A DNA stretch of 63,254 bases, taken from contig RGZB01000005.1 in the NCBI GenBank assembly GCA_010031735.1, forward strand, positions 1 to 63,254. The letters run 5' to 3'. Origin of the DNA: Pseudomonadota bacterium (lineage in GTDB: Bacteria > Pseudomonadota > Alphaproteobacteria > Rickettsiales > RGZB01). Under the pieces are notes generated by a model that was not told the origin of the DNA, ran no database searches, and saw only the letters and a program-made list of their open reading frames with translations. Positions 2 through 59,776 of the stretch are shown here, in pieces (the first letter of the stretch is position 1; each line of letters opens with the position of its first letter). A program made the position numbers and the translations under genes.

Positions 2-16
2 TTAACGATTTATTAA
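2..16. promoter_or_regulatory. CtrA-type binding box (TTAA-N7-TTAA)
   Basis: TTAA cgattta TTAA, followed by TATAGT/TATGTT -10-like hexamers, upstream of the small ORF at 71. Confidence 0.7.
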
Positions 17-70
17 TACATTATATAGTATGTTGAATGTAATAAGCACACAATACTTAGGGAGGACCAT

Positions 71-220
71 ATGGTGGTGAAAAAAACATCCCATACCCAG
101 AGTAAAAGAATGAACACCAATACCAAGCATGCGCCAGAGCAACTGGATTTAGAGGAATTCATCCAGAAAATGCCTGCTCAGACGCTGGTCGCGACGGTAT
201 TACAACCGATGACGGTATAG
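71..220 (+). CDS. small hypothetical protein, 49 aa (MVVKKTSHTQSKRMNTNTKHAPEQLDLEEFIQKMPAQTLVATVLQPMTV)
   Basis: Hand translation; strong RBS AGGGAGGA upstream of ATG; TAG at 218-220 just short of the convergent mtaB stop; below ORF-track size cutoff. Confidence 0.6.
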   Translation: MVVKKTSHTQSKRMNTNTKHAPEQLDLEEFIQKMPAQTLVATVLQPMTV

Positions 221-225
221 GCAGC

Positions 226-1545
226 TCAGGCGGCGGATTTTTCTGCAGCGTCCAGTGCTACGGAGCCGGTGAGGTTGCCGTTTTCATATCCCGTGATGGT
301 CACATCCACGATATGCCCGATTTGGTTGGAAGGCCGCGAAAGCTGGATCGTCGTATAATGTTCCGTGCGTGCGCGGTCGCCGTGCTCGATAAGTGCTTTC
401 ACCGTACGGTTCACTTGAGATTGCTGATAATCGTTCAGTTGTTTCTCGCCAAGTTTACGCAATAAACGCGCGCGGTTTTTGCGTACAGACAGCGGTACTT
501 GTTTATCCGCGGGGATTTTCGCCGCTGGCGTACCTTCGCGTTCGGAATACGGGAATACATGAAGATAGATGAGGTTCGCAGCGCGCACGAATTCGAACGT
601 GTTCTGGAACATCTCGTCCGTCTCGGTCGGGAACCCCGCGATGATATCGGCACCGAACACCGCATCCGGGCGGACTTTACGCACATTATGGACGAAATCG
701 AGCGCCTGCTTGCGCGTGTGGCGGCGTTTCATGCGCTTTAAGATCATGTCATCGCCCGCTTGCAGCGAGAGATGGAAATGCGGCATCAAGCGCGGCTCAT
801 CCGCGATCAGGCGGAATAAATCCTGATCGATCTCCGCGACATCCACAGATGAGAGGCGGATGCGGGGAAGGTTCGGCACGAGTGCGAGCAGACGGCGCAC
901 CATCTGGCCGAGTGTCGGTTTGCCGGGAAGATCGGCACCGTACGAAGTGAGGTCGACCCCGGTCAGCACGATTTCCTGGTAGCCGTTTTTCACGAGCGTG
1001 GTCGCCTGTTCCACGATGTGCCCGATCGGCACCGAGCGGCTGTTGCCGCGGCCATACGGGATGATGCAGAACGTACAGCGATGGTCGCAGCCGTTCTGCA
1101 CTTGCAGGAACGCGCGGGTGCGGCCTTCCAAACCCGGGATCAAATGCCCTGCGGTTTCTTCCACCGACATGATATCGTTCACCTGGATTTTCTCGGTCGT
1201 GCCGATGAAATCGGGTGCGCTTGGCGTATTCGTGTTCGTAAGGTTCTGGTATGCCTCGCCCTTCAGTTTCTCAGCATTGCCGATGACGTTATCGACTTCC
1301 GGCATATCCGCGTAGGCCTTTGGATTCACCTGTGCAGAGCAACCGGTGACGATGATCTTCGCATCTGGATTCTCACGGCGGTAGCGGCGGATCGATTGGC
1401 GTGCCTGGCGCTCCGCCTCTTTCGTGACGGCGCAGGTATTGAAGACAGCCACATCTGTGAGACCGTTCTCTTCGAGGTGTTTTTTGATCACCTCGCTCTC
1501 GAAGCTGTTTAAGCGGCAGCCAAATGTAATGACATCCTGACCCAT
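226..1545 (-). CDS. mtaB: tRNA t6A37 methylthiotransferase (radical SAM, MtaB)
   Basis: TFGCRLN N-terminus, NTCAVT, CDHRCTFC radical SAM motif; next to dapF as in many alphaproteobacteria. Confidence 0.93.
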   Translation of the reverse strand: MGQDVITFGCRLNSFESEVIKKHLEENGLTDVAVFNTCAVTKEAERQARQSIRRYRRENPDAKIIVTGCSAQVNPKAYADMPEVDNVIGNAEKLKGEAYQNLTNTNTPSAPDFIGTTEKIQVNDIMSVEETAGHLIPGLEGRTRAFLQVQNGCDHRCTFCIIPYGRGNSRSVPIGHIVEQATTLVKNGYQEIVLTGVDLTSYGADLPGKPTLGQMVRRLLALVPNLPRIRLSSVDVAEIDQDLFRLIADEPRLMPHFHLSLQAGDDMILKRMKRRHTRKQALDFVHNVRKVRPDAVFGADIIAGFPTETDEMFQNTFEFVRAANLIYLHVFPYSEREGTPAAKIPADKQVPLSVRKNRARLLRKLGEKQLNDYQQSQVNRTVKALIEHGDRARTEHYTTIQLSRPSNQIGHIVDVTITGYENGNLTGSVALDAAEKSAA

Positions 1546-1640
1546 GCAAGTCCGACAAAGATTGATTGCGTTTCGTTGTTTAAAAAGTGTAGTGCGTATG
1601 GAGATAAAAAAGATATGCGTTCTTAAGAAACACGTGACCT

Positions 1641-2492
1641 TTAAGCAGTGTGTGTTTCGAGCTCTAAAGTTCCTTCGAACTGCAGCTTAACAGGCCCGCT
1701 CATCATCACGCGGTTGTTAGGCATCCACTCAATCTCCAATGTCCCGCCTTTAAGCTCGACACTGGCTTTCCTCCCCGCAAGTTTACGCCTTGCTGCTGCA
1801 ACGACGGCCGCACAGGCGCCCGTGCCACACGCTAAGGTTTCCCCTGCTCCCCGTTCGAAAACGCGGAGGCGGAGTGTATCAGAAGCCATAATTTGTGCAA
1901 CGCCGATGTTGGCGCGCTCCGGGAAGAGGGCGTGATGCTCCAAGGCCGGACCCAACTCTTTGAAATCTATGGTATTTATATCTTTTACGAAGAAGACAGC
2001 ATGCGGATTTCCCATACTGACCCCGACCGGATCGGAGAGCGGTCCCTGGCTGATCGGCAGATGGAGCGTATCGGCTTGGTGTGCGAGGGGGATCTCGTTC
2101 CACTCGGTGCGCGCGGGCCCCATATCGACCTGAATGAGGTTTTTATCGGTACGCGTGGCAGTGAGCAAACCTGCCAAGGTTTCGAAAGTGGAGGTATCTT
2201 TTTTCTGCTCTTTCATCATCAGCCAGCCGATGCAGCGCGAGGCATTGCCGCATGAGGCGACTTCGCTGCCATCGGAATTATAGATGCGCATGAAACAATC
2301 CGCTTTTTGTGATTTCTCGATCACGATCAACTGATCGCAGCCTTTCGTGATGGTATTCGCACGCCCGGAAAGACGCAGTATTTCTTCAGGTTTTAAATGC
2401 AGCGCACGCGCACGCGCATCGATGATAACGAAGTCGTTTCCGGTTCCGTCCATCTTGAAAAAATGAAAAGGTGCGATATGCGTTTGATTCAT
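1641..2492 (-). CDS. dapF: diaminopimelate epimerase
   Basis: KMDGTGNDF, CGNASRC, SMGNPH, ERGAGETLACGTGACA. Confidence 0.97.
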   Translation of the reverse strand: MNQTHIAPFHFFKMDGTGNDFVIIDARARALHLKPEEILRLSGRANTITKGCDQLIVIEKSQKADCFMRIYNSDGSEVASCGNASRCIGWLMMKEQKKDTSTFETLAGLLTATRTDKNLIQVDMGPARTEWNEIPLAHQADTLHLPISQGPLSDPVGVSMGNPHAVFFVKDINTIDFKELGPALEHHALFPERANIGVAQIMASDTLRLRVFERGAGETLACGTGACAAVVAAARRKLAGRKASVELKGGTLEIEWMPNNRVMMSGPVKLQFEGTLELETHTA

Positions 2493-2553
2493 AAGTGAGT
2501 ACTAGTTATAATAGCGGTCGCAGGAAAATGAATATTTATTTCAGGATACTAGC

Positions 2554-3123
2554 ATGAACCAAGTGCTCAATCTACTGGTGAAACTGGCGATCGTGGCGGT
2601 GATTGGCTATGGCGGTTACACGTTCTACCGCAGCTATTTCGATAACGATACGGATAAAATCGGTTCGCAAGCACTGGTACGCCAGGTACTCACCATCAAT
2701 GCCGAGCAACTCAAGGGTTTACTCGAATCGGGTCCGAAGAATAACCGCCCGGCGCTCATGTATATCTTCGAATCCACCAACATCGTTTCCCGATTTTATT
2801 TTGCGGATATCGTGAAGTTCTACGATCTTTTCCCGCGGGATAAACTCAATATCATCATGCTTTCGCTCGACCAGGACCCGAAAGCGATCGCGGCGTTCTT
2901 GGACAAGAAGGGGTTCCAACGCCTGCGTATCCTGCGTATGGATCCATCCGAGCGCCAGAACATGGTGGGCAAGATCTTCGAACTCGGCGGGCATTTTGAT
3001 GGTGGTGTGCCGTATGTGGTGGTCATCAACAAATCGGGCCTGATCGAAGAAGTGCCGCTCAGTTTCAATCGCAGCGACAAGATCAAACACCTGATCGAAC
3101 GTTCGAGCGAACAGAAGACATGA
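2554..3123 (+). CDS. membrane-anchored thioredoxin-fold (TlpA-like) protein lacking CxxC
   Basis: N-terminal TM; TlpA-like pattern (PALMYIFES..., LSLDQD, GVPY cis-Pro loop); no cysteine in the protein. Confidence 0.55.
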   Translation: MNQVLNLLVKLAIVAVIGYGGYTFYRSYFDNDTDKIGSQALVRQVLTINAEQLKGLLESGPKNNRPALMYIFESTNIVSRFYFADIVKFYDLFPRDKLNIIMLSLDQDPKAIAAFLDKKGFQRLRILRMDPSERQNMVGKIFELGGHFDGGVPYVVVINKSGLIEEVPLSFNRSDKIKHLIERSSEQKT

Positions 3124-5372: not shown

Positions 5373-5378
5373 GAGACA

Positions 5379-5870: not shown

Positions 5871-6995
5871 ATGAAACTTACGGACTACCGTTCCATCGTT
5901 ATTAAAATCGGCTCGTCCCTCCTTACCGATGAGAAGGGAAACCCACGCCGCGCGTGGCTTGAGAATCTGCTGCTCGATGTCGCGGAACTGAAGAAGCAAA
6001 AATCGAAAAACGGTAAACCGGTCGAAGTGGTGATCGTCAGTTCCGGTGCCGTGGCGCTTGGGCGCAACGCACTGGGGTTTGCACACGGCGCGCTGCGTCT
6101 GGAGGAAAAACAAGCGGCTGCCGCCTGCGGTCAACCGCGTCTTATGGCACTTTACCGCGAACTATTCGAGGCACATAAAATCCATGCGGCGCAGGTGCTG
6201 CTGACCATGGAAGATTCGGAAGACCGCAGGCGCTATCTGAACGCGCGCACGACACTGCGTACCTTGCTTGATGCCGGTGTGGTGCCGGTGATCAATGAAA
6301 ACGACACGGTCGCGACCGAAGAGCTTCGCTTCGGTGATAACGACCGTTTGGCAGCGCGTGTCGCACAGATGGTAAGCGCGGAACTCCTGATCCTGCTCTC
6401 GGATATCGACGGGCTTTATACCGCCAATCCCAAAACCGATAAAAACGCGAAACATATCCCGCTCGTCAAATCGATCACGCCGGAGATCGAGGCGATGGGG
6501 GGTGCTGCTATCTCGGCGGTCGGTTCTGGTGGTATGGTGACGAAGATCGCCGCTGCCAAAATGGCATTCTATTCCGGTTGCCATACGGTGATCATGGAAG
6601 GTTCGGATGGCTCTCCGCTGAAACGTCTCGAGAAGGGTGGTGTGCATACGCTGTTCCAAGCACAATCAAGCCCGATGCAGGCACGCAAACATTGGATCGC
6701 AAGCGGCCTTCGTGCCTCGGGCGAAGTGACGGTCGATAGTGGGGCTGCCAAGGCGCTCAAAGAAGGCAAAAGCCTGCTACCGGCGGGTGTAAAAGAGATC
6801 AAAGGCCAATTCGGCCGCGGGGATGCGGTCAGTATCCTCGATGAATCGGGCAGGGAGATCGGCCGGGGCTTGGTGGCATATGCCGCGGAAGACGCGCGCC
6901 GCATCATCGGCCATAAAAGTGCGGAAATCGCAGCTATCCTGGGTTACGAGGGGCGCGACGCCCTCATCCACCGCGACGACATGGTGGTGAGTTAG
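5871..6995 (+). CDS. proB: glutamate 5-kinase with PUA domain
   Basis: VIKIGSSLL, VSSGAV, INENDTV, FGDNDRLAA, GSGGMVTK. Confidence 0.97.
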   Translation: MKLTDYRSIVIKIGSSLLTDEKGNPRRAWLENLLLDVAELKKQKSKNGKPVEVVIVSSGAVALGRNALGFAHGALRLEEKQAAAACGQPRLMALYRELFEAHKIHAAQVLLTMEDSEDRRRYLNARTTLRTLLDAGVVPVINENDTVATEELRFGDNDRLAARVAQMVSAELLILLSDIDGLYTANPKTDKNAKHIPLVKSITPEIEAMGGAAISAVGSGGMVTKIAAAKMAFYSGCHTVIMEGSDGSPLKRLEKGGVHTLFQAQSSPMQARKHWIASGLRASGEVTVDSGAAKALKEGKSLLPAGVKEIKGQFGRGDAVSILDESGREIGRGLVAYAAEDARRIIGHKSAEIAAILGYEGRDALIHRDDMVVS

Positions 6996-8451: not shown

Positions 8452-9282
8452 ATGGCTTCCCCCAGTAAGAAAAAATCTTCCGCAAAACCGGCTGCTAAGA
8501 AATCCGAACCGCGCGTTGCGGTGGTCACGGGTTCGACAAGCGGTATCGGACTTGGCATCGCGAATGCACTGGCGGCAGAAGGCTGTCATATCGTACTCAA
8601 TGGTTTTGGTGATTCCAAAGAAATCGAAAGCATCCGTAGTGGTTTAGAGAAAACCTATAAAGTACGCGCGATCTATGTCGACTGCGATCTCTCGAAACCG
8701 GCGCAAGTGCAGAAACTGATTCATGTCGCCGAAGAAAAATTCGGGCGCGTCGATATCCTGGTGAATAATGCCGGTATGCAATATGTCGCACCGGTGCAGG
8801 AATTCTCCGGCGAGAAATGGGAGCAGTTACTCTCCGTCAATCTTTCGGCGTCGTTCTATACCATCCATGAAGCATTGCCGGGCATGCAGCAGCGTGGCTT
8901 TGGTCGTATCATCAATATCGCTTCTGCTCACGGTCTGGTCGCGAGCAAGAATAAGTCGGCGTATGTGGCATCGAAGCACGGCCTCGTGGGACTCACCAAA
9001 GTAGTGGCGCTCGAGAATGCTACGGCCGACATCACCTGTAATGCGATCTGCCCGGGTTGGGTACTGACACCGCTCGTGCAGGCGCAGATCGATACGAACG
9101 CCGAGAAGGAACACATCCCGGTGAAAGATGCAGAAATAAAACTGCTCTCCGAAAAACAACCGTCGCTGCGTTTCGCGACACCGGAAGAGATCGGGGCATT
9201 GGTGGTGTATCTTTGCAGTGAAAGCGCCCGCTCGATCACCGGTACGACGCTTTCGATCGACGGTGGCTGGACCGCTCAATAA
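8452..9282 (+). CDS. bdhA: 3-hydroxybutyrate dehydrogenase (SDR)
   Basis: TGSTSGIG, NNAGMQ, ASAHGLVAS, YVASKHG, CPGWVLTPLV, DGGWTAQ. Confidence 0.92.
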   Translation: MASPSKKKSSAKPAAKKSEPRVAVVTGSTSGIGLGIANALAAEGCHIVLNGFGDSKEIESIRSGLEKTYKVRAIYVDCDLSKPAQVQKLIHVAEEKFGRVDILVNNAGMQYVAPVQEFSGEKWEQLLSVNLSASFYTIHEALPGMQQRGFGRIINIASAHGLVASKNKSAYVASKHGLVGLTKVVALENATADITCNAICPGWVLTPLVQAQIDTNAEKEHIPVKDAEIKLLSEKQPSLRFATPEEIGALVVYLCSESARSITGTTLSIDGGWTAQ

Positions 9283-11672
9283 GTGAGTGAACGGCCTGGG
9301 TCTTGCCGGGCTTCACCGGTTGCCCGTAATATCTTTGCGATGATCGGCACACGTCCGGTGTGCATATAGAGATTCACCTTATCAGGACTTGTGCCTTTCT
9401 CTTCTGCGATGGCGACCTTATCCAGTGTTGCTGCATCCCGTCGTGCACTAAAGAAATTTTTTGCCTGTTCGTACGTATCCACATTCATCGAACTCACCGC
9501 ATGCGGGCTGAGATTATTGGCGACTGCAATCTGATGTAGCATGGCTTCGATATTGATGACCACGCCATCTTCTTTGAAAGGATGGCGGCTGAAGATGGGT
9601 GGCATGGTAGTAGTGTCGGGCCTACTTGAGAGATCACCCTTGATCTTCTTCAAGAACAGATCCGGTTCGGACGGGACACCAAGGTCGAGCTTGCCGTCTG
9701 CGACGTACGCCATGAAATCCGCTTCGGTCATATAACGGAAATGGCGGGGTGAGACGAAAGGATCTGCACCGACATCACTGGGTTTCTTCGGTTCTTCGGC
9801 GAGGAACTTCTTCACATCATTAATGCCGATTTCATACGAAGTATCACTAAAGCCGGTCGCATTGCCGGGCGTGCCGTCCTTGTCCAGGATGGAATACGGT
9901 CCAAGGCCAGGCCCGATATCGATACGGATGCTATCGGGTTCGACGTGGTATTCCTCGAACATCGCTTTGATGGTTTTATCGAGTACACCGCTGCGTAGCC
10001 CATGGTGCGATCCCACCACGAGGGCCATCACCGGTTGGCCGCCATATTTATATCCGCGCACCAGAATGGTGTGTGCATCGCCACTCAACGCTGCGATCGG
10101 GCACTCCGGATCATCGGTGATGATGGCGTCGCCAGCAAATTTATGGATGGGTTCTGCACCCGCGTAGGCGTGTTCTACACTACGTATTTTGACCGGCTTC
10201 GTATCGACGATGACGTCCTCCGGGATGGATGCCTCGCGGCCATTTCCGATCTTGACGATGCCCGCCCCATATTGCGATTGCAACACGAAGAGATTCTCCA
10301 ATTTCACATCCATGAAATCAGCAGCCCGGCGGAAATTCTCGTGCGTATTTTCCTTTTTATCGCCGCCGGTCGTAAGTACGTTCAGGCCATTATCGCCAGG
10401 CATCAACCGATGCGGGTGGATGATGCCATAAGCCCCGGTTTTACGTCCTGCGTCGTCCGTGGTATCCGTGCTGACGCCGCCGTGATAAGTAAAGAACTCT
10501 GCATCGGTCCCGTTCATGGGGTTCGGGCTGTAGCTATGGATCAGCGGATAGAGATTACTTTTATAGACGCTATCAGCGAACGACAGTTTTCGGCTCGGTG
10601 GCACATGCATCGAGTCATCATGGCGGGTTTGTGCGGTGAGCGTTGAGTCGTTCAACATATGGAATTCGAGTAACGGGCCCCTCAATGCGTTGAAGGCATT
10701 TCGTACGGCAAGATCCGCTGCCTCAGGAGAGGATATACCCTTCAGGCTACAATGCGTGGTAAGCGCGGCCACACAATCGGTCACATCTTCTCTCAGGAAT
10801 GCGAGGAAGGTATCGCCCGAGCGATGAACGCGAGTGCCATGGGTATGGAGCTCAACGGTTTTTTCTCCCGTTCGCTGCACGATGCCTGCGGTTGAGCCGC
10901 TGAAGCTGCCGGTTACGATTTGCGGAGTGTAATGGTGCGGGCCTCCGCTGATGGCAGGCTCACTCAGCAGCGGATCGAATTTCGAAGCCGTGAAGGTAAG
11001 CGATGCCACCACCTGCCTGTTGCTAAGATCAAGGTGGAACGCTGTGAGCGAAGGAAGGAATTTTTTGGCTTCACGGATATCCAACCGTGCCACTTCAGAA
11101 GTGCGTCCGGGCAGATATTCCTTGCAATGATCCGTCAGGTGACCAAGGGTTGCTTTGGCTACGACCATAGCCTCGATACATGCTTTGGGTGTGGTAGGTG
11201 TAACAGCGGTGTTTATTCGGCTGTTGAATGCATCCAGCTTCACCTTATCGATCGTGCCATCCGCCCGTAGTGCCGCGAAGGCAAGATAGGCTTGCTTGAT
11301 CTCGTAGTCTGCTATGTAGCGCATACGTTCGATGGTCTCATCGGCATGAGACAGGCGTTGAACAGGTAAACCCAATTGTACGAATGCGCCTTGCCGTGCA
11401 ACGGTGCCTAGCTGTGCTTCATTCACATTGAGTTTCAGCGGGTCCGAGGGAAGGGTGGCGGCGATATCCGGTGCATGCAGCAGGAGTGAGAGGTGGAATT
11501 CGCGGTCCGGCTCCGGGAGGGTTCTTGCTACCAATCCCAGACGTTCAAACCACCCACGACGCGATGCGAGACGTGGCTTATCCACCTGCGTGAGGTCGAT
11601 CGCGTGCAATAGGATTTTCTGCCCGGGTTCTTGGCGAAGTGGAATCTCTGCTAGCAGGCGATTTGTCGGCAT
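9276..11672 (-). CDS. 798-aa protein: unknown N-terminal half plus a degenerate YfiH/PgeF (LACC1-like) domain
   Basis: FFTYHGGVS, GLNV...D...EN, GDAIITDDP, IGPG...SYEIG, DTY...FFSARRD, GR follow YfiH motif order; catalytic H/C/H positions substituted. Confidence 0.75.
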   Translation of the reverse strand: MPTNRLLAEIPLRQEPGQKILLHAIDLTQVDKPRLASRRGWFERLGLVARTLPEPDREFHLSLLLHAPDIAATLPSDPLKLNVNEAQLGTVARQGAFVQLGLPVQRLSHADETIERMRYIADYEIKQAYLAFAALRADGTIDKVKLDAFNSRINTAVTPTTPKACIEAMVVAKATLGHLTDHCKEYLPGRTSEVARLDIREAKKFLPSLTAFHLDLSNRQVVASLTFTASKFDPLLSEPAISGGPHHYTPQIVTGSFSGSTAGIVQRTGEKTVELHTHGTRVHRSGDTFLAFLREDVTDCVAALTTHCSLKGISSPEAADLAVRNAFNALRGPLLEFHMLNDSTLTAQTRHDDSMHVPPSRKLSFADSVYKSNLYPLIHSYSPNPMNGTDAEFFTYHGGVSTDTTDDAGRKTGAYGIIHPHRLMPGDNGLNVLTTGGDKKENTHENFRRAADFMDVKLENLFVLQSQYGAGIVKIGNGREASIPEDVIVDTKPVKIRSVEHAYAGAEPIHKFAGDAIITDDPECPIAALSGDAHTILVRGYKYGGQPVMALVVGSHHGLRSGVLDKTIKAMFEEYHVEPDSIRIDIGPGLGPYSILDKDGTPGNATGFSDTSYEIGINDVKKFLAEEPKKPSDVGADPFVSPRHFRYMTEADFMAYVADGKLDLGVPSEPDLFLKKIKGDLSSRPDTTTMPPIFSRHPFKEDGVVINIEAMLHQIAVANNLSPHAVSSMNVDTYEQAKNFFSARRDAATLDKVAIAEEKGTSPDKVNLYMHTGRVPIIAKILRATGEARQDPGRSLTY

Positions 11673-11720
11673 ATCCTTGCCTTACAGAAGGTTACATGCC
11701 CTTACTGTGGCATAAAATGG

Positions 11721-11735
11721 TTAAGATTCGATTAA
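11721..11735 (-). promoter_or_regulatory. CtrA-type box with an internal GANTC site
   Basis: TTAA gattcga TTAA; on the minus strand 11 nt later CACAGT (-10-like); ~50 nt upstream of the 798-aa ORF. Confidence 0.7.
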
Positions 11736-18752: not shown

Positions 18753-19982
18753 TTAATGCGCGGTGGTACTACCGCTTGCGTTGCCACCGCTGATCTTGGA
18801 GTGCTGGTGGATCATGCTGATGAAGTAGGAGAGGTTTTCCACTTCCTGCTTTTCGTTTTCGGATAAGGTGAGCAAGCGCTGGATCATCTCTTTCGCCGGT
18901 TGGCGACGGTTCGGGTGTTCATGATCCATCTCGATCAACACACGCACGACGAGTTTCACGGCATCAAAGATGTCTTTCGGTAGTTCCGCACGCTCATAGA
19001 GTTTGCGGAAACCATCGCCCATCACGTCTGCCACCAGTTTCTTGACGTTGGCGACGGGCACATGGGTCACACGCGCGATACTGATCTCAAAGAGCGGCAG
19101 ATGCCCCATGCAGAGTGCAGAAATCGGTGAAAGCCTTCCTTGTTCTTCAAGTTTTTCGATGAGCATCGTGAGGCGTTCGCTCCGCATCACGAGATCCTGT
19201 GCGAGGTCGCTTGAGCGGTCCATCTCATCCACGATCTTGCGGATATCGCCCTCGGAACTAAGGCCTAAGAATTGCAGGGTAACGGCTTCGCGGCTTTTCT
19301 CGATGATGGATTTCAGTTCCGGGCTTTTATTGCCATATTTCTCGAGCAGGCGGTCTTGCAGAATATCCGATACGCGGGAGACGAGTTTCTCCACCAGTTT
19401 CACCGGGAGGTTTTCACGCGCCGCCAGACGTTCGGTGACGTCTTTGCTGGTCGTGAAGATATCGGCGGTTTTGGAAAGCGTCATCTCGCTGAATTTCACT
19501 TCAACGCGCGATAACATGTTCGAGACGACAGTCGCGTTTTTCGTATCGACCAACGCATCGGAGAGTTTTTCGGACACTTCGGAGCGATTAGAGATCGCCA
19601 GCAGGCGATCGGTGCTCTCGGTGCTTTTGATGATCTCGATCAGGTCGTCATCCATGAGCACTTCGGAATATTGCAATACCGGGATCGCGACCGCATCGGC
19701 ATCATGTGCCAGTTCAAGTACGATATCGCGCGGGATGTTCGGATTGTTCTTCACGTTTTCGGAAAGCGCGTGGCGTACGCTGATCTCGGCGTCTTTCAGG
19801 AGTGCGCGGAAAATCTGTTCCGCCATCTTCATCTGTTGTGCAGTGAATTCATTGCTGTTATAGCTCGAGGATATCTTGCCTAGCACCTCTACACGTACCG
19901 CAGGTGAAGGATTCTCAAGCAGATGTGCGACGTCCGTGGAGGAAAGCATAGGATGTTTGTTCTTTTCGCTAGCAGGAGCCAT
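18753..19982 (-). CDS. DUF2336 domain protein
   Basis: IFRALLKDAEISVRHALS, PRDIVLELAHD, PVLQYSEVLMDDDLIEI. Confidence 0.88.
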   Translation of the reverse strand: MAPASEKNKHPMLSSTDVAHLLENPSPAVRVEVLGKISSSYNSNEFTAQQMKMAEQIFRALLKDAEISVRHALSENVKNNPNIPRDIVLELAHDADAVAIPVLQYSEVLMDDDLIEIIKSTESTDRLLAISNRSEVSEKLSDALVDTKNATVVSNMLSRVEVKFSEMTLSKTADIFTTSKDVTERLAARENLPVKLVEKLVSRVSDILQDRLLEKYGNKSPELKSIIEKSREAVTLQFLGLSSEGDIRKIVDEMDRSSDLAQDLVMRSERLTMLIEKLEEQGRLSPISALCMGHLPLFEISIARVTHVPVANVKKLVADVMGDGFRKLYERAELPKDIFDAVKLVVRVLIEMDHEHPNRRQPAKEMIQRLLTLSENEKQEVENLSYFISMIHQHSKISGGNASGSTTAH

Positions 19983-20036
19983 AATGGAGCCATTCTAATG
20001 GTTGGAAGGTGCTTTTTGCAACCTTCTTTCAGGCTT

Positions 20037-21140
20037 TTATCGTGCGGAGAGTTGCTGAGCTTGCAGCAATTGGACGATATACGGCATGTTCGGGATGGTT
20101 TTATGATACCCGCGTTGCATCAGGCGGTCCACCACACGGCGTGCAAACGCCGGTGAGCCGGCAAACGCCTCTTCTTCGAGCGCCGAATTTAACAGCACTT
20201 CTGTTGCCTTCATCATATTTTCCGGCAGATGGCAGGCGCGGTATAGTGAATCGAAACCTTGCGCACTACCCTGACGCAGCAATTTGCGTGCATTCGAGGT
20301 CGGGATGCGGGCCAGTTCCGCCATCGCGCTTTCAAATAGCGGGAAATTCCCTTCGCAGAGTGCTCGGATCACGAGCGAATGGGTCAGCTGCTCGGTTTTG
20401 CCGAGATGTTCGGTCATCTCATGATGATCACGAGAAGCCCCATTCTTGCTGATCAATTCCACCGTTGCGCGTTCGCGCACATCATCGGCCAAGCGTTCTG
20501 CCGCCGGTGCCGACACACCATATTTGGTGGTGAGTTTGCGTTGCAGATTGAGTGTGAGCGATGTGATGAAACGCTGTGCGACCGTCAGCGACAGGCCACC
20601 CCGTTCGATCAATGCATCGAGCACGGTCTCGTTGCGGTTATATAGGTCGAACGCGCGTGTGATGCTGTGTTCGCTGATATCCGCCGTATTGTTGCTGAAG
20701 AGTGCGGTCGCAGCAGCCGTGTTCCCCGCTTCGACCAGTGAACCGGAGACGGCACTCGATAAGAATTTGCGTCGCGCGACTGCGATCAGTTTTTTGGTCT
20801 CACGCGTGCTGTGGATGATTTCTTGTAAGTCGTCATCGGTGAGCACGGGCGAGAATTCGAGCATCGGGGTAGAGACTTGTTCGACATCGCGCGCGAGTTT
20901 GAGCGCGATATCGCGCGGCAGGTCGCGGTTTTCTTTTAAGTGATTGGAGAGGATCGCGCGGATGCGCATCTCGACATCGTTCGCCAGCAGCAGAATAATT
21001 TCTTTTGCGATATGGCATTCGGATTCGGAGAATTTGCGATCATTGAAAGCGACAGCGATCTGCTCCGCCAGCACGGAACGTATCTCCGGTGTTGGCTGTT
21101 CTTTCAGAACAGCGAAATCGCTCAGTTTTAGCGCCTTCAT
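20037..21140 (-). CDS. DUF2336 domain protein (paralog)
   Basis: LLANDVEMRIRAILS, PRDIALKLARD, PMLEFSPVLTDDDLQEI. Confidence 0.88.
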   Translation of the reverse strand: MKALKLSDFAVLKEQPTPEIRSVLAEQIAVAFNDRKFSESECHIAKEIILLLANDVEMRIRAILSNHLKENRDLPRDIALKLARDVEQVSTPMLEFSPVLTDDDLQEIIHSTRETKKLIAVARRKFLSSAVSGSLVEAGNTAAATALFSNNTADISEHSITRAFDLYNRNETVLDALIERGGLSLTVAQRFITSLTLNLQRKLTTKYGVSAPAAERLADDVRERATVELISKNGASRDHHEMTEHLGKTEQLTHSLVIRALCEGNFPLFESAMAELARIPTSNARKLLRQGSAQGFDSLYRACHLPENMMKATEVLLNSALEEEAFAGSPAFARRVVDRLMQRGYHKTIPNMPYIVQLLQAQQLSAR

Positions 21141-21246
21141 ACTCGATGCTCCCTTTTCCTCGCATCATTGCGCTGCGTAGTCGATCCCAAGGGCGTTCCT
21201 CCTCACCCTTTGAATCTGCAGCAAGCCTAGTTATAAGGCTCAAACC

Positions 21247-21261
21247 TTAACAAGTCGTTAA
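21247..21261 (-). promoter_or_regulatory. CtrA-type box of DUF2336 operon promoter
   Basis: TTAA caagtcg TTAA; on the minus strand 11 nt later TATAAC (21235-21230). Confidence 0.75.
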
Positions 21262-21351: not shown

Positions 21352-21366
21352 TTAATAAAAAATTAA
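21352..21366. promoter_or_regulatory. second CtrA-type box upstream of DUF2336 operon
   Basis: TTAA taaaaaa TTAA in an AT-rich tract. Confidence 0.5.
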
Positions 21367-21377: not shown

Positions 21378-21424
21378 AAAAAAGAAACACCCCTGGTGCA
21401 GTATTTCTGCATCAGGGGTGTTTC
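21378..21424 (-). terminator. intrinsic terminator after ridA-like gene
   Basis: GAAACACCCCTGGTGCAG-tattt-CTGCATCAGGGGTGTTTC hairpin with T-run on minus strand. Confidence 0.8.
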
Positions 21425-22069: not shown

Positions 22070-22145
22070 TTAACGAATTTTTAAGCTTTTGGTCACGAAA
22101 GGTTCACCTCATTGTAACAAAACTTTAACATTCGGTTGTTAGTTT
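22070..22145 (+). promoter_or_regulatory. CtrA-type promoter of virB2 cluster
   Basis: Perfect TTAA cgaattt TTAA (22070-22084); near-perfect GTAA caaaact TTAA (22114-22128) + 11 nt + TAGTTT. Confidence 0.7.
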
Positions 22146-22214: not shown

Positions 22215-22547
22215 ATGAAGACAGACATTTGTATCTATCGTTCTACAGTTAGTGCACTGCTTGTTGCAGTGGTCATTCTTTTTCCGGAAGGTGCAGTGTG
22301 GGCGCAGACCGCTGGCGGTACGCTCGATGCTGAACTGGGCGGCGGTCTGTGTAAGATTGTGAAGGCTCTGACCGGTCAGACGGGTCGTGCGATTGCCAGT
22401 ATCGGGATTTGTATCCTGGGTATCGGTGCATTCTTCGGCAAGGTCAACTGGGGTTTAGCGATGACGGTCTCAGTGGGCGTCATGGCGATGTTCTCATCCA
22501 TGAAAATTGCCAACATCTTTGCCGGAGGTACGGCGGTTACGTGTTAG
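22215..22547 (+). CDS. virB2: VirB2/TrbC-family pilin 1
   Basis: Signal peptide ending VWA-Q; LCKIVKALTGQTGRAIA; LGIGAFFGKVNW; terminal Cys. Confidence 0.9.
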   Translation: MKTDICIYRSTVSALLVAVVILFPEGAVWAQTAGGTLDAELGGGLCKIVKALTGQTGRAIASIGICILGIGAFFGKVNWGLAMTVSVGVMAMFSSMKIANIFAGGTAVTC

Positions 22548-22666
22548 TGAGAATGGCGAATTTTTCGCTGGCGGAGGCAGATATCTGCTAAACCGACAGC
22601 GGCGAATAAAGTGCGTAGTGTGTGTGGTTTAATATAAGTTGCTTAACGTTTAACAAGGAGAAAAAA

Positions 22667-23005
22667 ATGAAAGTAGTATTCAATCAGAACCTCATTTACC
22701 GTTTGGTGGTGAGTTTAGTGTTATCGGCACTTGTGCTGATGCCAGAGATGGCCTTCGCGCAAACAGCGGGTACGGGTGACCTTGATACGGTGACTGGTGC
22801 AAAAATGTGCTTAATCGTAAAAGCCCTGACCGGTCAGACCGGCCGTGCAATCGCAACCGTGGGTATCATCATCCTCGGTATCGGTGCATTCTTCGGTAAG
22901 GTCAACTGGGGTCTTGCAATTCTCGTCGCAGTCGGCGTGATCGCGATCTTCGCAGCAGCGAGCATCGTAGGCGCTATGGGTGCTGGCGGCAGCACGTGCA
23001 CATAA
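22667..23005 (+). CDS. virB2: VirB2/TrbC-family pilin 2
   Basis: AAGGAG RBS; AFA-Q cleavage site; near-identical core to pilin 1; C-terminal CT. Confidence 0.9.
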   Translation: MKVVFNQNLIYRLVVSLVLSALVLMPEMAFAQTAGTGDLDTVTGAKMCLIVKALTGQTGRAIATVGIIILGIGAFFGKVNWGLAILVAVGVIAIFAAASIVGAMGAGGSTCT

Positions 23006-23030
23006 GAGTGCGCGTAAGTTAAAATGCAAC

Positions 23031-23064
23031 ATCAAGGCCACCTTCGGGTGGCCTTGATTGTTTC
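23031..23064 (+). terminator. hairpin with cUUCGg loop after the pilins (terminator/attenuator)
   Basis: ATCAAGGCCACC-ttcg-GGTGGCCTTGAT then tgtttc. Confidence 0.75.
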
Positions 23065-23114
23065 TAGCCTATTTTTATAGCGACGAACCCCCCACAATTT
23101 CTTATAATAACCGC

Positions 23115-25646
23115 ATGGCAAAAAAGAACCGAACGAACGAACAGCGGCAGCAGGTAAGCGAGAGCGAGTTCATCCCGCTGGCCTGCCACTTCGATCCCAA
23201 TACGCTCCTCACCAAGAATGGCGAGTTACTACAAACCATCAAGATCACCGGCTTCACCTACGAGAGCGTCTTTAACAACGACGGCAAGAAAACCACGCTC
23301 CGCCGTATGATACGTACGGCGATCGCCGAGAGTTTTACCTCGAACAATTATGCGCTCTGGATACACACCGTACGCCGCAAGAAAAACCTCAATGTCGGTG
23401 GGCAATATCGCCCTGGCAGTTTTGAGGAGTATGTCCACCAATCCTGGGTGAAGCGTAACGATTGGGAAAATAAATACGTCAACGAGCTCTATATCACCGT
23501 GGTACGTGAAGGGGAATCGTTCAAGCTGCACCCGGAGGAATATCCCCGCAGCTTCTTCTGGGGTGCGGAGCGCAAGAAGCGCATGAAGTTCATTGAGGAG
23601 GCCTTTGCAGAGATCAATGCGGTCGGGGATCGGATGCTGACGCGTCTACAGGAATTCGGTGCACGGCGCTTGACGATCAGCGAATACCAGGGGGTGAGTT
23701 ATTCCGAACCGATGCAATTCTTCGGGAAGATCATCAATCTGGTGGAAGAAGGGATGCCAGCACCCATCAGCGATATTTCCGAAGTGATCTGCACGCGTAA
23801 AATCGCGTTTGGCCATAACCTGCTTGAAGTGAAAGGTGAGAAAGACCGGTATTTCGGTGCGATGCTGACCGTGAAAGAATACCATGAGGTCAGTTCGACC
23901 GCGATCGACCGCTTCCTGCAGCTCGACCAGGAATTCATCATCACGGAAACATTCGATTTCATCAGTAACGACCGCGCGCTCGAAAGTTATGAGAAACAAA
24001 AAGAAATAATCGCCCTTTCCAACGACAAGCGTTTTGCCAAACTTTCCGGCATGGAAGATGTGATCGGTTCCCTTCGCGGCAAACCGATCGATTTCGGTGA
24101 ACACCAGATCAGTATCATGCTTTTCGATAAATCGATTGCAGGTTTAGAGGCGGAGATTCGTGGTATCTTCAAGGCATTCGGCGAGATCGGTATCGTGGCG
24201 GTGCGTGAAGACCTGATGATGGAAGATGCCTTCTGGGCACAACTTCCGGGTAACTTCCCGTTCCTGCGGCGTCTGTCGCCCATCAGTTCGAACCAGGTGG
24301 CGGGCTTCGCCTCGCTCTACAATTTCCCGGCGGGCAAGATCCAGGGTAATTACTGGGGTGCGGCGGTGGCGCTTCTTTATACCAAGGCCAAAACCCCGTA
24401 TTTCTTCAATTTCCACGACGGGGATAACGGCCATACCAGTATCATCGGACCCTTCGGTGCGGGGAAAACGGTGCTGCTCAATTTCCTGACCTCCGAGGCG
24501 CGGAAATTCAACAATCGTCTGTTCTTCTTTGATCAGCAGCGTGCCTCCGAACTTTTCCTGCGTGCGATCGGTGGTGATTATAAGCGTATCATGAAACAAC
24601 CGCAGAACCATGAACTCAAGATGAATCCGCTGCGGCTTCCGGACACGCCGCAAAACCGTAGCTTCCTGCGTGCCTTGCTGCTGTACATGGCGATGGACGA
24701 TAGCATGCATGTTTCACCCGAAGACTCTACACGTATCCATCAAGCGGTGGACCATATTTACCTGCTCGCGGAAAACGATCGCCGCCTGGCGAACGTGTTA
24801 CCAAAATTTTGGCCGGTTACGGGTGCAGGTCAATCAACACAAGCACCTTCTGCGTTCGAGAACGAACTCGCTTCTATCCAAGCGGGTGCGCGGGCGGTGC
24901 AATTACCGGATGGGTCCATCCAGCAACCGGCGTTACAAGAACTGACCACACCCGAACGTTTGGCGCAATGGTATGGAAACGGTAAATATGCCCACCTGTT
25001 CGACAACCCGACCGACGAAATGCGCTTCGATGGGTTGGTCTACGGTTTCGGCATGACGGAGATGGTGCAGGAAAAACGCCCCCTGATTCCGGTGCTATCG
25101 TACCTGCTCCACCGCATCAAGAATGCACTCGACGGCACCCCGACCATGCTGGTGCTGGACGAGGCGTGGTCATTGATTGACAATCCCGTATTCGCCCCCC
25201 ACGTAACCCACTGGCTCGATGATATGCGCAAGCATAACTGCATGGTGGTTCTGGCTACCGAATCCGTGGAAGACGCGAAAAATAGCAGTATTACCAAGGT
25301 GATGATGGATAAAATGGCCACCCGCATCTTCCTGCCGAACCCGCAGGCGACCCAGGCATATAATGATGTCTTCGGTCTGTCGGATGAGGAGTTTGTGGCC
25401 CTCAAATCCATGCGGTCGGACCGTCGGGAATTCTTGCTTAAACACCACCTGGACCATGTCATCGGAACCTTGGATTTGAGCGGAATGCATGATATAATAG
25501 CAGTACTTTCCGGTTCGAAAGAAAACGTATCCGTGATGTCTACCATTATGTTGGATGTGGGTACGGAGCCGGATCGTTGGTTACCGATATTCCGTGAACG
25601 GGTGATCGCGGAAGAGAACCGTAAAAACAAGGGACACGCGGCGTGA
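23115..25646 (+). CDS. virB4: VirB4-family T4SS ATPase (resembles Rickettsiales VirB4-II)
   Basis: FIPLACHFDPNTLLTKNGELLQ, FWAQLPGNF, YFFNFH, Walker A GPFGAGKT, Walker B LVLDEAW, IFLPNP. Confidence 0.92.
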   Translation: MAKKNRTNEQRQQVSESEFIPLACHFDPNTLLTKNGELLQTIKITGFTYESVFNNDGKKTTLRRMIRTAIAESFTSNNYALWIHTVRRKKNLNVGGQYRPGSFEEYVHQSWVKRNDWENKYVNELYITVVREGESFKLHPEEYPRSFFWGAERKKRMKFIEEAFAEINAVGDRMLTRLQEFGARRLTISEYQGVSYSEPMQFFGKIINLVEEGMPAPISDISEVICTRKIAFGHNLLEVKGEKDRYFGAMLTVKEYHEVSSTAIDRFLQLDQEFIITETFDFISNDRALESYEKQKEIIALSNDKRFAKLSGMEDVIGSLRGKPIDFGEHQISIMLFDKSIAGLEAEIRGIFKAFGEIGIVAVREDLMMEDAFWAQLPGNFPFLRRLSPISSNQVAGFASLYNFPAGKIQGNYWGAAVALLYTKAKTPYFFNFHDGDNGHTSIIGPFGAGKTVLLNFLTSEARKFNNRLFFFDQQRASELFLRAIGGDYKRIMKQPQNHELKMNPLRLPDTPQNRSFLRALLLYMAMDDSMHVSPEDSTRIHQAVDHIYLLAENDRRLANVLPKFWPVTGAGQSTQAPSAFENELASIQAGARAVQLPDGSIQQPALQELTTPERLAQWYGNGKYAHLFDNPTDEMRFDGLVYGFGMTEMVQEKRPLIPVLSYLLHRIKNALDGTPTMLVLDEAWSLIDNPVFAPHVTHWLDDMRKHNCMVVLATESVEDAKNSSITKVMMDKMATRIFLPNPQATQAYNDVFGLSDEEFVALKSMRSDRREFLLKHHLDHVIGTLDLSGMHDIIAVLSGSKENVSVMSTIMLDVGTEPDRWLPIFRERVIAEENRKNKGHAA

Positions 25647-27085
25647 GAGTTGGCACTTCGACGCAGGGTCCAAACCAAGAGCACGGTATGATGCGCCCGC
25701 GTGTTGCTGTCACCTTATTCCCACTGATAGTGCTGGTATTTTCATTGCTGTTCACGGCGATGCCGGAATCGGCGTCGGCCACTACCACCTATACTTATAC
25801 CTGTGATGGGTTTGCCCTCCAGGACAACCACGCGGAAAGTCTCAACAACTGCGCCAGTATCATCAATAACTCCAACGGCTGGGGTATTTTTGCAGGTTCC
25901 GTCTGTGTGATACGCGCCGCGATGGCGGACTCCATGTTCCGCATGTATTGCGACCTCATGACGAAGATCAAGCCGTATTTTATTATCGGACTCACGATCT
26001 ATATCATTTTCTACGCCATCGCCTTCATGTTCGATATCGGCGAGGATTCCGGTAAAAAGCCAGGGCCTACGTTTATCATACGGGTGACGAAAGTGCTTGC
26101 TATCATGGCCATCGCGTTCAAGCCGGAAGTGTTCTATTTCATGCTTTACCGCCTTATCATCTACGGGGTGCTCGATGGGGTTTCCGACCTGCTCATCAGT
26201 ACCAGTTCGTGGCTCAGTTCTTCCGCCGCAACGTCGGGGATGACAGGTTCGATGGTGATCTTCAACAACCTCGATGTGGTATGGGAAACAGTGGTGGGTA
26301 CCGGCTTCGTGATCGCCATGTCTGCCCTGGCGGTGGCACTGATCATCACGGGTATCGGTTCTTTCATCGGATTCATCATTTTCTCTGCCATCATCGCGAC
26401 GATCATGGCGTTCTTACGTGCAGTGGTGGGATACGTCACCGCACTCGTGGCACTCACCTTCCTCCTGATGTTCACGCCACTCTTCATGACCTTGCTCCTA
26501 TTCCGCCGTACCAAAGAATTGTTCGAAGGTTGGGTATCGAGCTTGGTTTCCTACACCCTGCAGCCGATCATCGTGTTGTTCTTCCTGTTCCTGGTGGGTG
26601 AAGTCCAGGACGTGAGCCGTGCGATGAAGGACGTCGCCGATAGTTTCCAAGCGGACAGTAACGGTACCTATGAGAAGAAAACCCTTTTCGTGAGTGCGAA
26701 GATGAATGCACCGAAGATCATCCCGCTCACCGGTGCGGATACGGAACCGAGCGTGGGTTCGTTCCTTGCCGGTATCGTGAACATGCTGTTTTACGGTATC
26801 GCGTTCCTGGTGCTCGATCTGGTACTTTCCTCGTTCCTGAAGATGATACCGCAGATATCGGTCACGCTCGCACAGTTCGGTGGTAGGCCGGGTGCATTGT
26901 TTGTTGTTGGTGGTGGTGGCGGCGGCGGCGGGCCGGATAAAAGCATGGGCAGCCTCATGGATATCGGTAAAGCGGCTGCAGGTTCTGGTGAGAAAAATAC
27001 GGCTGCCAGTGTGCTACGACAAAAACTCTCCGATGGTCGCAGGGGTATAAGTTCGGAAGAGCGCAAAAAAATGGAAGATAAGTAG
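25643..27085 (+). CDS. virB6: VirB6/TrbL-family T4SS membrane protein
   Basis: Polytopic core with PLFMTLLLFRRTKELFEGW...LQP; GTG overlaps virB4 stop (alternative ATG 25688). Confidence 0.82.
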   Translation: MRVGTSTQGPNQEHGMMRPRVAVTLFPLIVLVFSLLFTAMPESASATTTYTYTCDGFALQDNHAESLNNCASIINNSNGWGIFAGSVCVIRAAMADSMFRMYCDLMTKIKPYFIIGLTIYIIFYAIAFMFDIGEDSGKKPGPTFIIRVTKVLAIMAIAFKPEVFYFMLYRLIIYGVLDGVSDLLISTSSWLSSSAATSGMTGSMVIFNNLDVVWETVVGTGFVIAMSALAVALIITGIGSFIGFIIFSAIIATIMAFLRAVVGYVTALVALTFLLMFTPLFMTLLLFRRTKELFEGWVSSLVSYTLQPIIVLFFLFLVGEVQDVSRAMKDVADSFQADSNGTYEKKTLFVSAKMNAPKIIPLTGADTEPSVGSFLAGIVNMLFYGIAFLVLDLVLSSFLKMIPQISVTLAQFGGRPGALFVVGGGGGGGGPDKSMGSLMDIGKAAAGSGEKNTAASVLRQKLSDGRRGISSEERKKMEDK

Positions 27086-54603: not shown

Positions 54604-55020
54604 TCACGATTCTGCGAGAATTTTGATCAGCAACGTGATGACCTCTTTCTGCCGGGGGTGGCGGATGCGCATGAAATCGCGGAGCGCATGGAGGGCATCC
54701 TTGTACGCGGCGGTCAACTCCTGGCTCGTCAGCAGACTTTCTTTTTCATAGAAGTCCGCGACCGAGGTGCCAAGCAGATGGGCAATCGCATGCAGGCGGC
54801 TTGCCGTGATGCGATTCGCGCCACGCTCGTATTTATGCAGTTGTTGGTGGGTGATGCCGAGTTTTCTCGCCAGTTCTTTGCGTGAATAACCGGCGATCAC
54901 CCGCCGCTCCTCGATGCGTTTGCCGATCGCGATATCGATCGCCTCGATACTCCGCACATTGCGTTTGTGAATCTGCTCGGCAGCGGTAGGTTTTAGGGGT
55001 GTCTCTGAATCACTGAACAT
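54604..55020 (-). CDS. XRE-family HTH regulator (StaR-like alphaproteobacterial subfamily)
   Basis: IGKRI..RR, LGITHQQLHKYERGANRITASRL. Confidence 0.88.
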   Translation of the reverse strand: MFSDSETPLKPTAAEQIHKRNVRSIEAIDIAIGKRIEERRVIAGYSRKELARKLGITHQQLHKYERGANRITASRLHAIAHLLGTSVADFYEKESLLTSQELTAAYKDALHALRDFMRIRHPRQKEVITLLIKILAES

Positions 55021-56112: not shown

Positions 56113-56130
56113 TGTAATATGATCCGTGGC

Positions 56131-56157
56131 CCGTACGACGCAGACCCCGTCGTACGG
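56131..56157. terminator. hairpin between convergent genes
   Basis: CCGTACGACG-cagaccc-CGTCGTACGG. Confidence 0.6.
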
Positions 56158-56168
56158 CAGTGATGCGA

Positions 56169-58853: not shown

Positions 58854-59003
58854 ATTATCCCTCGCACGTTTATGGGGGTACATCCGCCCCTCTAAAAGTT
58901 GCGCGCAACATAGCCAGAAGCCTTGTCAAAAGCAAGCGAAAACGGGTGATTTCAAGGGAGGGGGCAGAAAGTGGGGGTGGGCCTAAAAAACCCCCTTAAA
59001 CGC

Positions 59004-59047
59004 CGACGGGGGAGGTCCGAGCCACTTGGCCCGGGCCTCCCCCGTCG
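59004..59047 (-). terminator. long GC-rich hairpin downstream of the high-GC ORF
   Basis: CGACGGGGGAGG...CCTCCCCCGTCG, about 20-bp imperfect stem. Confidence 0.65.
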
Positions 59048-59063
59048 TTCGTTCACATCCCTA

Positions 59064-59513
59064 TCACTTCGACCGCATGATTACCGTCACCACGGCCACC
59101 ACCGCCACCGCCACCAAACCCAGTGCCATCACCGCCTGGAGCCACTTCGGCAGCCACTGCTCGTTCGGGTCATCCAGCGCGCGCGCCGTCCGATCTTCGT
59201 CGTCCGGATACTCCTGCAGTTGCTCCAGCCGGATGTTGCCCGTCACGTCCGCCTCCGCGAAGATGTCGTCCACCGGTGCCGGGTCGATTGTCAGTTCGAA
59301 CCGGCCGGCGCGGGTCGCATCGAACGGGCCCGGCTCGAGCGGGATCACTTCCGTCACGATTGGGGGCAAGGCCGGCAGAATCAGTTGGCCATCGAGCCGC
59401 GTGAGCGTGTAGTCGTGGCTGCTCAGCAGGTCTGTCGCGCCGTACCCCGGTTGACCGTCCTTGTTGGTCACCTCGAACACGAAACCATCGATCACGAGAT
59501 GCACCGCACGCAT
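59064..59513 (-). CDS. high-GC hypothetical tail-anchored protein, 149 aa
   Basis: GAGGA RBS; acidic soluble part and single C-terminal TM followed by RSK; own hairpin. Confidence 0.6.
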   Translation of the reverse strand: MRAVHLVIDGFVFEVTNKDGQPGYGATDLLSSHDYTLTRLDGQLILPALPPIVTEVIPLEPGPFDATRAGRFELTIDPAPVDDIFAEADVTGNIRLEQLQEYPDDEDRTARALDDPNEQWLPKWLQAVMALGLVAVAVVAVVTVIMRSK

Positions 59514-59744
59514 AACCAGTCCTCGGAGTGTGGGGATGTCACCGGAAGCTTATGGCATTAGCTCCGGTACCTATCTAATGCCCGTCCTATGAAAGCGACG
59601 TGCAGAAGACCAAAGCAAAATCGAACTTGGGTCAAAGAATCAGCTTATAGTGTAGCAACGGAATATGACGGTTGTGTTACTGGAATAGCCATGTTTATCA
59701 ATGCAATAGCAAATGCTGGCCAAGGGGTGAATCGCGTTAAGCCA

Positions 59745-59776
59745 TTAACATTCTGTTAATTCTTTACGGTTATACT
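59745..59776 (+). promoter_or_regulatory. CtrA-type promoter of the orphan pair
   Basis: TTAA cattctg TTAA + 11 nt + TATACT; extra TTAA at 59737 and GANTC at 59729. Confidence 0.78.

Follow-up and report, generated by a model that had tools for sequence, protein, structure and literature searches.

A stereotyped CtrA-type promoter in an uncultured Rickettsiales-like bacterium and its association with orphan genes and type IV secretion operons

The tandem box TTAA-N7-TTAA was analysed in a stretch of 63,254 nucleotides (nt) from an uncultured Rickettsiales-like bacterium (the window, which is the whole of contig C186; RGZB01000005.1) and throughout the genome to which it belongs (G000; 2.38 Mb in 251 contigs, 53% G+C and 98.7% complete). 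Together with a hexamer of the form TANNNT placed exactly 11 nt further on, the box was found to make up a stereotyped promoter, occurring in G000 and in at least two relatives from other families, and the boxes are most probably bound by the response regulator CtrA and serve as activator-dependent sigma-70 promoters. The boxes and the promoter geometry are textbook, but the content of the regulon is not. In G000 and in its sister genus G001, the two genomes whose targets were examined, what the promoter mainly drives are genus-specific proteins with no known function, and in six genomes it precedes type IV secretion system (T4SS) operons. The comparison covered 30 related genomes, among them G001, G002, G014, G015, G019, G021 and G022. 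Genes were called as the longest open reading frames (ORFs) by a greedy caller rather than by a trained gene finder, which gave 2488 ORFs of ≥70 amino acids (aa) and a coding share of 92%.

Box enrichment and promoter geometry

According to a first-pass annotation of the window, six perfect boxes lie at positions 2, 11721, 21247, 21352, 22070 and 59745, all of them intergenic and in excess of a chance expectation below one per window. All six were recovered, each falls between genes in our own ORF calls, and 100 dinucleotide shuffles yielded 0.25 boxes on average and never more than 2, so that none of the 100 reached six. The near-perfect box reported at 22114 is also present and reads GTAA-N7-TTAA. 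When spacings of 0 to 15 nt between two TTAA tetramers were compared across G000, the N7 spacing occurred at 118 intergenic and 6 coding sites, against 7–16 intergenic sites for every other spacing, and the N7 box thus stands about ten-fold above composition and spacing controls. Placed relative to genes, 58 of the 124 N7 sites lie between divergent genes, 49 upstream of one gene and 5 inside ORFs, and 12 face no gene start. The genome carries about 120 intergenic boxes, 76 of which belong to a full promoter by pattern count, a full promoter being defined as TTAA-N7-TTAA, N11 and TANNNT, with the hexamer at offset 26 from the first box base.

The distance from the box to the hexamer is fixed. 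In an alignment of the 107 gene-oriented sites, TANNNT starts 26 nt after the first box base (T, A and T in 71, 70 and 75 of the 107, respectively), and apart from this hexamer and a T-rich spacer centre the flanks hold almost no information. TANNNT stands at offset 26 in 65 of 165 site–gene pairs, compared with 1–14 pairs at the other offsets from 15 to 49, and the same preference was obtained for oriented intergenic perfect boxes (72 at offset 26, 3–17 elsewhere) and for boxes with one mismatch (34 at offset 26, 6–18 elsewhere). Because of this last excess, about two thirds of the 34 one-mismatch sites, among which is the site before virB2 in the window, are real. The 11-nt rule thus holds throughout the genome, accompanied by a minor variant with a 12-nt gap (offset 27 scores 14, the background being about 4). 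The window itself had been credited with four boxes followed by a −10-like hexamer at this distance; the letters are as reported, but only TAGTTT (22140) and TATACT (59771) fit TANNNT, CACAGT and TATAAC deviating from it. If transcription is taken to start about 7 nt after TANNNT, a proxy derived from the position of the hexamer, the box begins near −38. For activated promoters of Caulobacter with full CtrA motifs, the 5' base was reported near −35, and at −39 in ctrA P2 (PMC4287350; the same positions are summarised in PMC6180460), so that the geometry found here, judged by this proxy, matches the known activation geometry of CtrA.

The possibility that the pattern is a compositional or generic A/T-rich promoter feature without a dedicated regulator was found to be very improbable. 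Intergenic DNA is indeed A/T-richer than coding DNA, and the box at 21352 consists of A and T only, but N7 alone is enriched among the spacings and the 11-nt gap alone among the distances to TANNNT. The full pattern was counted 76, 54, 57, 58 and 24 times in G000, G001, G002, G015 and G021, respectively, whereas the reversed pattern gave near-zero values of 1, 1, 1, 8 and 9 and a control with a 13-nt gap gave 7, 7, 9, 22 and 3. An origin of the sites as copies of a repeat element was ruled out by the nearly uninformative flanks. Half-sites did not share in this enrichment. Lone TTAA-N11-TANNNT was found 40 times in intergenic DNA of G000, within the range of other gaps (29–60), and a half-site peak at a gap of 8 nt proved to be an artefact, being the first half of full boxes. 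The half-site promoters proposed earlier for a TacA-like gene and for the second pilin gene therefore fall, lone half-sites with the 11-nt gap being no commoner than chance; the TacA-like gene, whose product is by NCBIfam a generic NtrC/AtoC-type regulator, is preceded by TTGACT-N16-TAACCT, an ordinary promoter whose spacer contains the TTAA.

The regulator and the genes behind the promoter

Seven regulators of the OmpR family were found in G000, only one of which scores above the NCBIfam equivalog cut-off for CtrA (NF045991, 394 against 350 bits). Copies of ctrA are 70–84% identical in five relatives, the protein of G000 sharing 84, 84, 80 and 76% identity with those of G001, G002, G015 and G021, respectively. 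The remainder of the relay is also represented, by a ChpT-type phosphotransferase above the cut-off of Pfam HPTransfase (PF10090) and by a CckA-like hybrid kinase of 859 aa, for which CckA is by far the best family (636 bits; strict cut-off 1000). A box lies upstream of ctrA itself in G000, G001, G002 and G015. The earlier assignment of the motif to the alphaproteobacterial CtrA site agrees with the enrichment, with the presence of the ctrA, cckA and chpT genes and with the classical targets described below. On the sequence statistics, the two TTAA half-sites, one helical turn apart, would occupy about −38 to −24 in place of a −35 element, with TANNNT exactly 11 nt on; phosphorylated CtrA, fed by CckA and ChpT, would then bind as a tandem dimer and recruit RNA polymerase. 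Separately, chpT was found to be the gene immediately upstream of cheA, the two being separated by a perfect box (C113:45392-45520), and the CtrA relay is in this way physically joined to the chemotaxis operon.

Tandem repeats that contain TTAA and keep the same 11-bp phase are the sites of PmrA-type regulators in Salmonella, Legionella and Coxiella, and another member of the OmpR family, either PhoB or a PmrA/QseB-like protein encoded on C174, could thus be thought to bind some or all of the boxes. The PmrA/QseB-like protein is present in G000, though with a score below its cut-off (214 against 330 bits), the CtrA-type and Pho-type promoters of this genome share one geometry, and in Legionella about 40 effector genes are under activation by PmrA (PMC6989116). 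Nevertheless, this alternative is improbable. The PmrA/QseB-like regulator has no ortholog in G001, G002, G015 and G021, where its best match is CtrA at 39% identity, although the motif is enriched in all four genomes and CtrA is 76–84% conserved in them; the motif therefore tracks CtrA, and the PmrA-like protein is disfavoured as the binder. Moreover, the boxes precede ctrA and the classical CtrA targets, and the Pho-box-like sites of G000 read GTCAY instead of TTAA.

Some observations fit the assignment to CtrA less well. The CckA and ChpT scores lie below the strict NCBIfam equivalog cut-offs, the boxes at 21352 and, taken alone, at 22070 have no −10 hexamer, and the gene calls and start codons rest on the crude ORF caller described above. 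In addition, the boxes of most classical CtrA targets lack TANNNT at the expected offset, which implies two promoter sub-classes. Boxes of this kind, with no canonical −10, were found before ctrA/fliI, flagellin, cheA, a gene for a methyl-accepting chemotaxis protein (MCP), ftsZ, clpP, dprA and comM (loci C193:8124-9647 and C2:15739-16890, listed jointly for comM and dprA), a third DUF2336 gene (on C175, with the box 112 nt upstream), virB8-virB9 and several RTX proteins. At the virB8-virB9 box, TANNNT points the opposite way, towards an orphan of 1395 aa.

The genes behind the full promoter are of another kind. In a Pfam scan of 149 box-flanking genes outside the window, no family was assigned to 52 of 65 genes behind a full promoter, against 33 of the 84 other flanking genes (Fisher p = 9e-7) and 54 of 148 non-flanking genes drawn as background from the same fetched regions. 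This background is conservative, because 11 of the 54 orphans in it immediately follow a promoter target. The difference was retained for proteins of ≥150 aa (45 of 58 promoter targets without a Pfam family against 32 of 115 in the background, p = 6e-10), and the dominance of orphans in the regulon is a computed fact. The 52 orphans have a median length of 305 aa and a median third-position G+C content (GC3) of 0.56, compared with 0.62 for the genome; a single paralogous family was ruled out, since blastp gave no matches among them. By crude hydropathy, 43 of the 52 lack both a signal-peptide-like start and any membrane segment, against 1562 of 2236 proteins genome-wide. The net charge of their C-termini, a classical feature of VirB/D4 signals, did not differ from the genome background. 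Glycine, on the other hand, was enriched at the C-terminal end, the last ten residues containing 1.50 per protein compared with 0.64 (p = 3.6e-7), and showed no change over the whole protein; this enrichment was spotted after the sequences had been viewed, and it was repeated in the genus-specific targets of G001 (1.18, p = 0.001, compared with the G000 background). The glycine-rich end may serve as an export signal or may simply be disordered. An enrichment of C-terminal arginine did not replicate in G001 and was discarded. Elsewhere in G000, two divergent proteins of 420–500 aa, each with a cytidine/dCMP deaminase-like domain, share one box with TANNNT in both directions (C47:2683-5516).

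Turnover of the targets between genera was found to be high. In G001, 37 of the 54 full promoters drive genes without a blastp match among the ORFs of G000 (E ≤ 1e-5); for the other 17 a match was obtained, and a box is likewise present at nine of these G000 homologues, including ctrA, a histidine kinase beside comM, mlaA and an asparaginase-like gene. Among the G001 targets with a Pfam family are two class-3 lipases, a subtilase, a protein with an FHA domain and a large RTX protein (L160, L161, L172, L175 and L129), enzyme types that are often secreted. Since most G001 targets are unmatched in G000 and the window orphans described below are unmatched in the relatives, the regulon appears to consist of a small conserved core and a large genus-specific shell. 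The predicted core comprises ctrA, fliI, flagellin, cheA, MCP, ftsZ, clpP, dprA, comM and DUF2336 genes, and the larger, fast-turning-over set would be made up of genus-specific orphans, mostly soluble and without Sec signals. The shared control of flagella, chemotaxis, DNA uptake, the T4SS and the orphans suggests that the programme serves a stage of dispersal or of contact with a host, and not housekeeping of the cell cycle in the strict sense.

The secretion system and the substrate question

The most elaborate promoter of the window precedes a T4SS operon on the plus strand (22215-27085), which is composed of virB2 (22215-22547), a second virB2 (probable ATG at 22667, end at 23005), virB4 (23058-25646) and virB6 (25643-27085). 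Upstream of it, at 22070-22129, six [GT]T[AC]A repeats follow one another in 11-bp phase (22070, 22081, 22092, 22103, 22114 and 22125). With a frequency of only 0.017 per intergenic position for this tetramer, the array is not due to chance. It contains a perfect box (22070-22084), two Pho-box-like middle repeats (GTCAC and TTCAC) and a one-mismatch box (22114-22128), followed after 11 nt by the −10 hexamer TAGTTT (22140-22145), 69 nt before the virB2 start. A phased array of similar kind, with three overlapping perfect boxes 11 bp apart, was also observed before an orphan of 1422 aa (C58:16424-16460). Control of the virB2-virB2-virB4-virB6 operon by CtrA is rather likely. CtrA controls DNA-uptake genes in Rhodobacter, and comEC (27138-29264, plus strand), which begins 52 nt after virB6, may be co-transcribed with the operon.

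Of the earlier proposal that the box marks virB genes and orphans alike, the part on orphans was strongly borne out (the 52 of 65 given above) and the part on the T4SS only moderately. The full promoter stands in perfect form before virB3-virB4 in G001 and G022, and with one mismatch before virB3 or virB2 in G019, G014 and G021; of the 15 positions of the G014 box, 2 differ from the window box. When the 200 nt that lead up to the first gene were examined at 28 virB operon loci, offset 26 reached a score of 6, compared with 0–3 at 19 other offsets; when the window and the G001 locus, which had come from the pattern search, were dropped, 4 of 26 loci remained against about 0.9 expected (p ~ 0.015). 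The promoter is absent from the other 22 of the 28 loci, however, and within 1.5 kb upstream of virB4 loci offset 26 was not in excess. The link between CtrA-type promoter and T4SS can thus be regarded, with moderate confidence, as recurrent in the order but not universal. Of the genes that characterise an rvh-type (Rickettsiales) VirB/D4 system, G000 itself has virB2, virB4, virB6, virB8, virB9, virB10 and virD4 (C25:48612-49949), scattered over contig ends. The virB3 gene and the duplicated virB4 of that type were not seen, as G000 gave no VirB3 hit and a single VirB4 locus, most of the 30 relatives having VirB4 matches at two loci, but with 251 contigs and T4SS genes at contig ends this does not show absence.

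The orthologous virB2 of G001 also counts against a general CtrA link, as it has a Pho-box-like promoter, TGTCAT-N4-CTGTCAT-N10-TACACT (L038 ~6890-6935), so labelled after the Pho-box consensus. Promoters of the same form occur in G000 at C25:11521 and C41:1775. In the window array, the proximal pair reads GTAAC/TTAAC and the distal pair GTCAC/TTCAC. Because of these middle repeats and of the promoter of the G001 ortholog, PhoB input or ancestry at the window virB2 promoter is a live possibility, and the occurrence of Pho-type and CtrA-type promoters of one geometry suggests regulator swapping at virB2. The case would illustrate a rewiring between OmpR-family activators of a single promoter geometry, virB2 being of Pho-type in one genus and of CtrA-type in the other.

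Two readings of the orphans were weighed. In the more far-reaching one, the full promoter would mark the VirB/D4 effector repertoire throughout the order, CtrA taking the role of PmrA and switching on the pilus and channel together with ≥50 genus-specific substrates per genome at a host-seeking stage, and the glycine tail being part of the export signal; this is put forward tentatively and as rather doubtful. There is about an even chance that, instead, the regulon is real and the T4SS and the orphans are merely co-regulated, the orphans being stage-specific cytoplasmic or otherwise exported proteins and not substrates, and the virB2 array being a relic or a dual PhoB/CtrA site. Mere co-regulation agrees with the background-like C-terminal charge of the orphans, with the boxes before RTX proteins, which by family are type I secretion substrates, with the Pho-box-like form shared by the G001 virB2 promoter and the two G000 loci, with the GTCAC and TTCAC repeats of the window array, and with a report from Dinoroseobacter shibae that places the T4SS outside the CtrA regulon (PMC4886583). 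It accounts less readily for the 43 orphans devoid of signal-peptide-like starts and membrane segments, for the glycine-enriched ends that recur in G001 and for the same promoter before virB operons in six genomes.

To our knowledge, few substrates have been identified for secretion systems of the Rickettsiales type, and their prediction is difficult. The promoter signature flags about 50 candidates per genome and would make the substrate question a testable list; if the effector reading were true, a motif scan alone would yield candidate effector lists for a bacterial group with very few known effectors. In 2013, no cis-regulatory sequence was known for T4 effectors in alphaproteobacteria, as stated in a paper on effector prediction (PMC3814349), and no report of a CtrA-box signature on T4SS substrates was found in the titles and abstract openings of the open-access papers that a search brought up.

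Other window sites and comparison with known systems

Apart from the virB2 operon, the predicted CtrA targets of the window are a DUF2336 gene pair, a protein of 798 aa, an orphan pair at 59860-61571 and probably an ORF of 49 aa. The canonical full promoter of the window lies at 59745-59776 on the plus strand, with a perfect box, an 11-nt gap and TATACT (59771-59776), and behind it are two tandem orphan genes with overlapping stop and start codons (59860-60765 and probably 60765-61571). The first orphan, of 301 aa, has no Pfam family, no match in any of the 30 relatives searched and a low-confidence Atlas model without a usable fold. On the minus strand, the perfect box at 21247-21261 lies 106 nt upstream of the first of two tandem DUF2336 genes (20037-21140 and 18753-19982, within 18753-21140), with TATAAC at 21230-21235; in G001, the location of this box and much of its sequence are conserved. 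A search of the open-access literature gave no paper linking DUF2336 with CtrA. The A/T-only perfect box at 21352-21366 has no −10 in either direction and is possibly an auxiliary site or an incidental one. It stands beside the terminator hairpin of yjgF, a strong G+C-rich hairpin followed by T's (21390-21424) just downstream of that minus-strand gene, and this hairpin is an ordinary terminator between the two boxes on the DUF2336 side.

The perfect box at 11721-11735 (minus strand) lies 48 nt upstream of the gene of the 798-aa protein (9276-11672, minus strand), and its CACAGT (11704-11709) is a poor −10. This lineage-specific protein, unmatched in all 30 relatives searched, joins a Cu-oxidase_4 (YfiH/LACC1-like) domain to a long N-terminal part of unknown kind, and only the known domain is seen in its Atlas model. 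At the contig end, the perfect box at 2-16 (plus strand) is followed after a 12-nt gap by TATGTT (29-34) and lies upstream of the ORF of 49 aa (71-219, plus strand), a candidate target with a GGAGG ribosome-binding site; the 15-mer of this box is identical to that of the box before the flagellin gene on C175. Two further observations concern other parts of the window. The plus-strand ORF at 58971-59561 is of low complexity and rich in R and H, and the true gene appears to be the ORF on the opposite strand at 59064-59513, which encodes 149 aa ending in a hydrophobic anchor. At 54604-55020 (minus strand), an HTH_3 protein of 138 aa has as its sole NCBIfam hit the Wolbachia WO male-killing protein (Wmk), at 59.7 bits and thus far below the cut-off of 300.

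The closest known counterparts of the promoter are the full-motif CtrA promoters of Caulobacter crescentus, for example ctrA P2 and those of class II flagellar genes, which likewise combine TTAA-N7-TTAA, a 5' base near −35/−39 and a sigma-70 −10. The Caulobacter regulon is also alike in the autoregulation of ctrA, in its ftsZ, clpP, flagellar and chemotaxis targets and in the CckA-ChpT-CtrA relay. The genome studied here has 76 full promoters in 2.4 Mb, compared with 52 reported for Caulobacter (PMC4287350). It differs in that four in five of its predicted targets are orphans and in that T4SS genes are among the predicted targets. Caulobacter pilA is under CtrA through several CtrA sites, one of which overlaps the −35 region. 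It resembles virB2 as a pilin gene behind multiple CtrA sites, but belongs to a Tad/Cpa pilus and not to a VirB2 T-pilus. In Ehrlichia chaffeensis, CtrA is likewise a Rickettsiales regulator with a lineage-specific regulon, tied to a developmental or stage switch (PMC6847485) and covering 211 genes by chromatin immunoprecipitation sequencing (PMC9791040). The passages of that work considered here name stress and envelope genes as targets, and not T4SS genes or effectors (PMC9791040), and the organism studied here differs further from Ehrlichia in being flagellated and in its larger genome.

The Pho-box promoters of PhoB are alike in having direct repeats in 11-bp phase that end 10 nt before the −10, as at virB2 of G001 and at the two loci of G000, but their half-site is GTCAY instead of TTAA, and in the virB2 array of the window only the two middle repeats are Pho-like. 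In the PmrA regulon, the box is a tandem repeat just upstream of the −10; a search of the open-access literature gave no paper on PmrA, TTAA boxes and Legionella effectors together. The likeness to the PmrA regulon of Legionella and Coxiella extends to its organisation, since there, too, an OmpR-family regulator switches on genes of the secretion system along with about 40 effector genes at dispersed loci (PMC6989116). The regulator, however, is a different one, the PmrA/QseB-like protein found here being without an ortholog in the relatives, the secretion system there is Dot/Icm, and the targets found here are candidate effectors.

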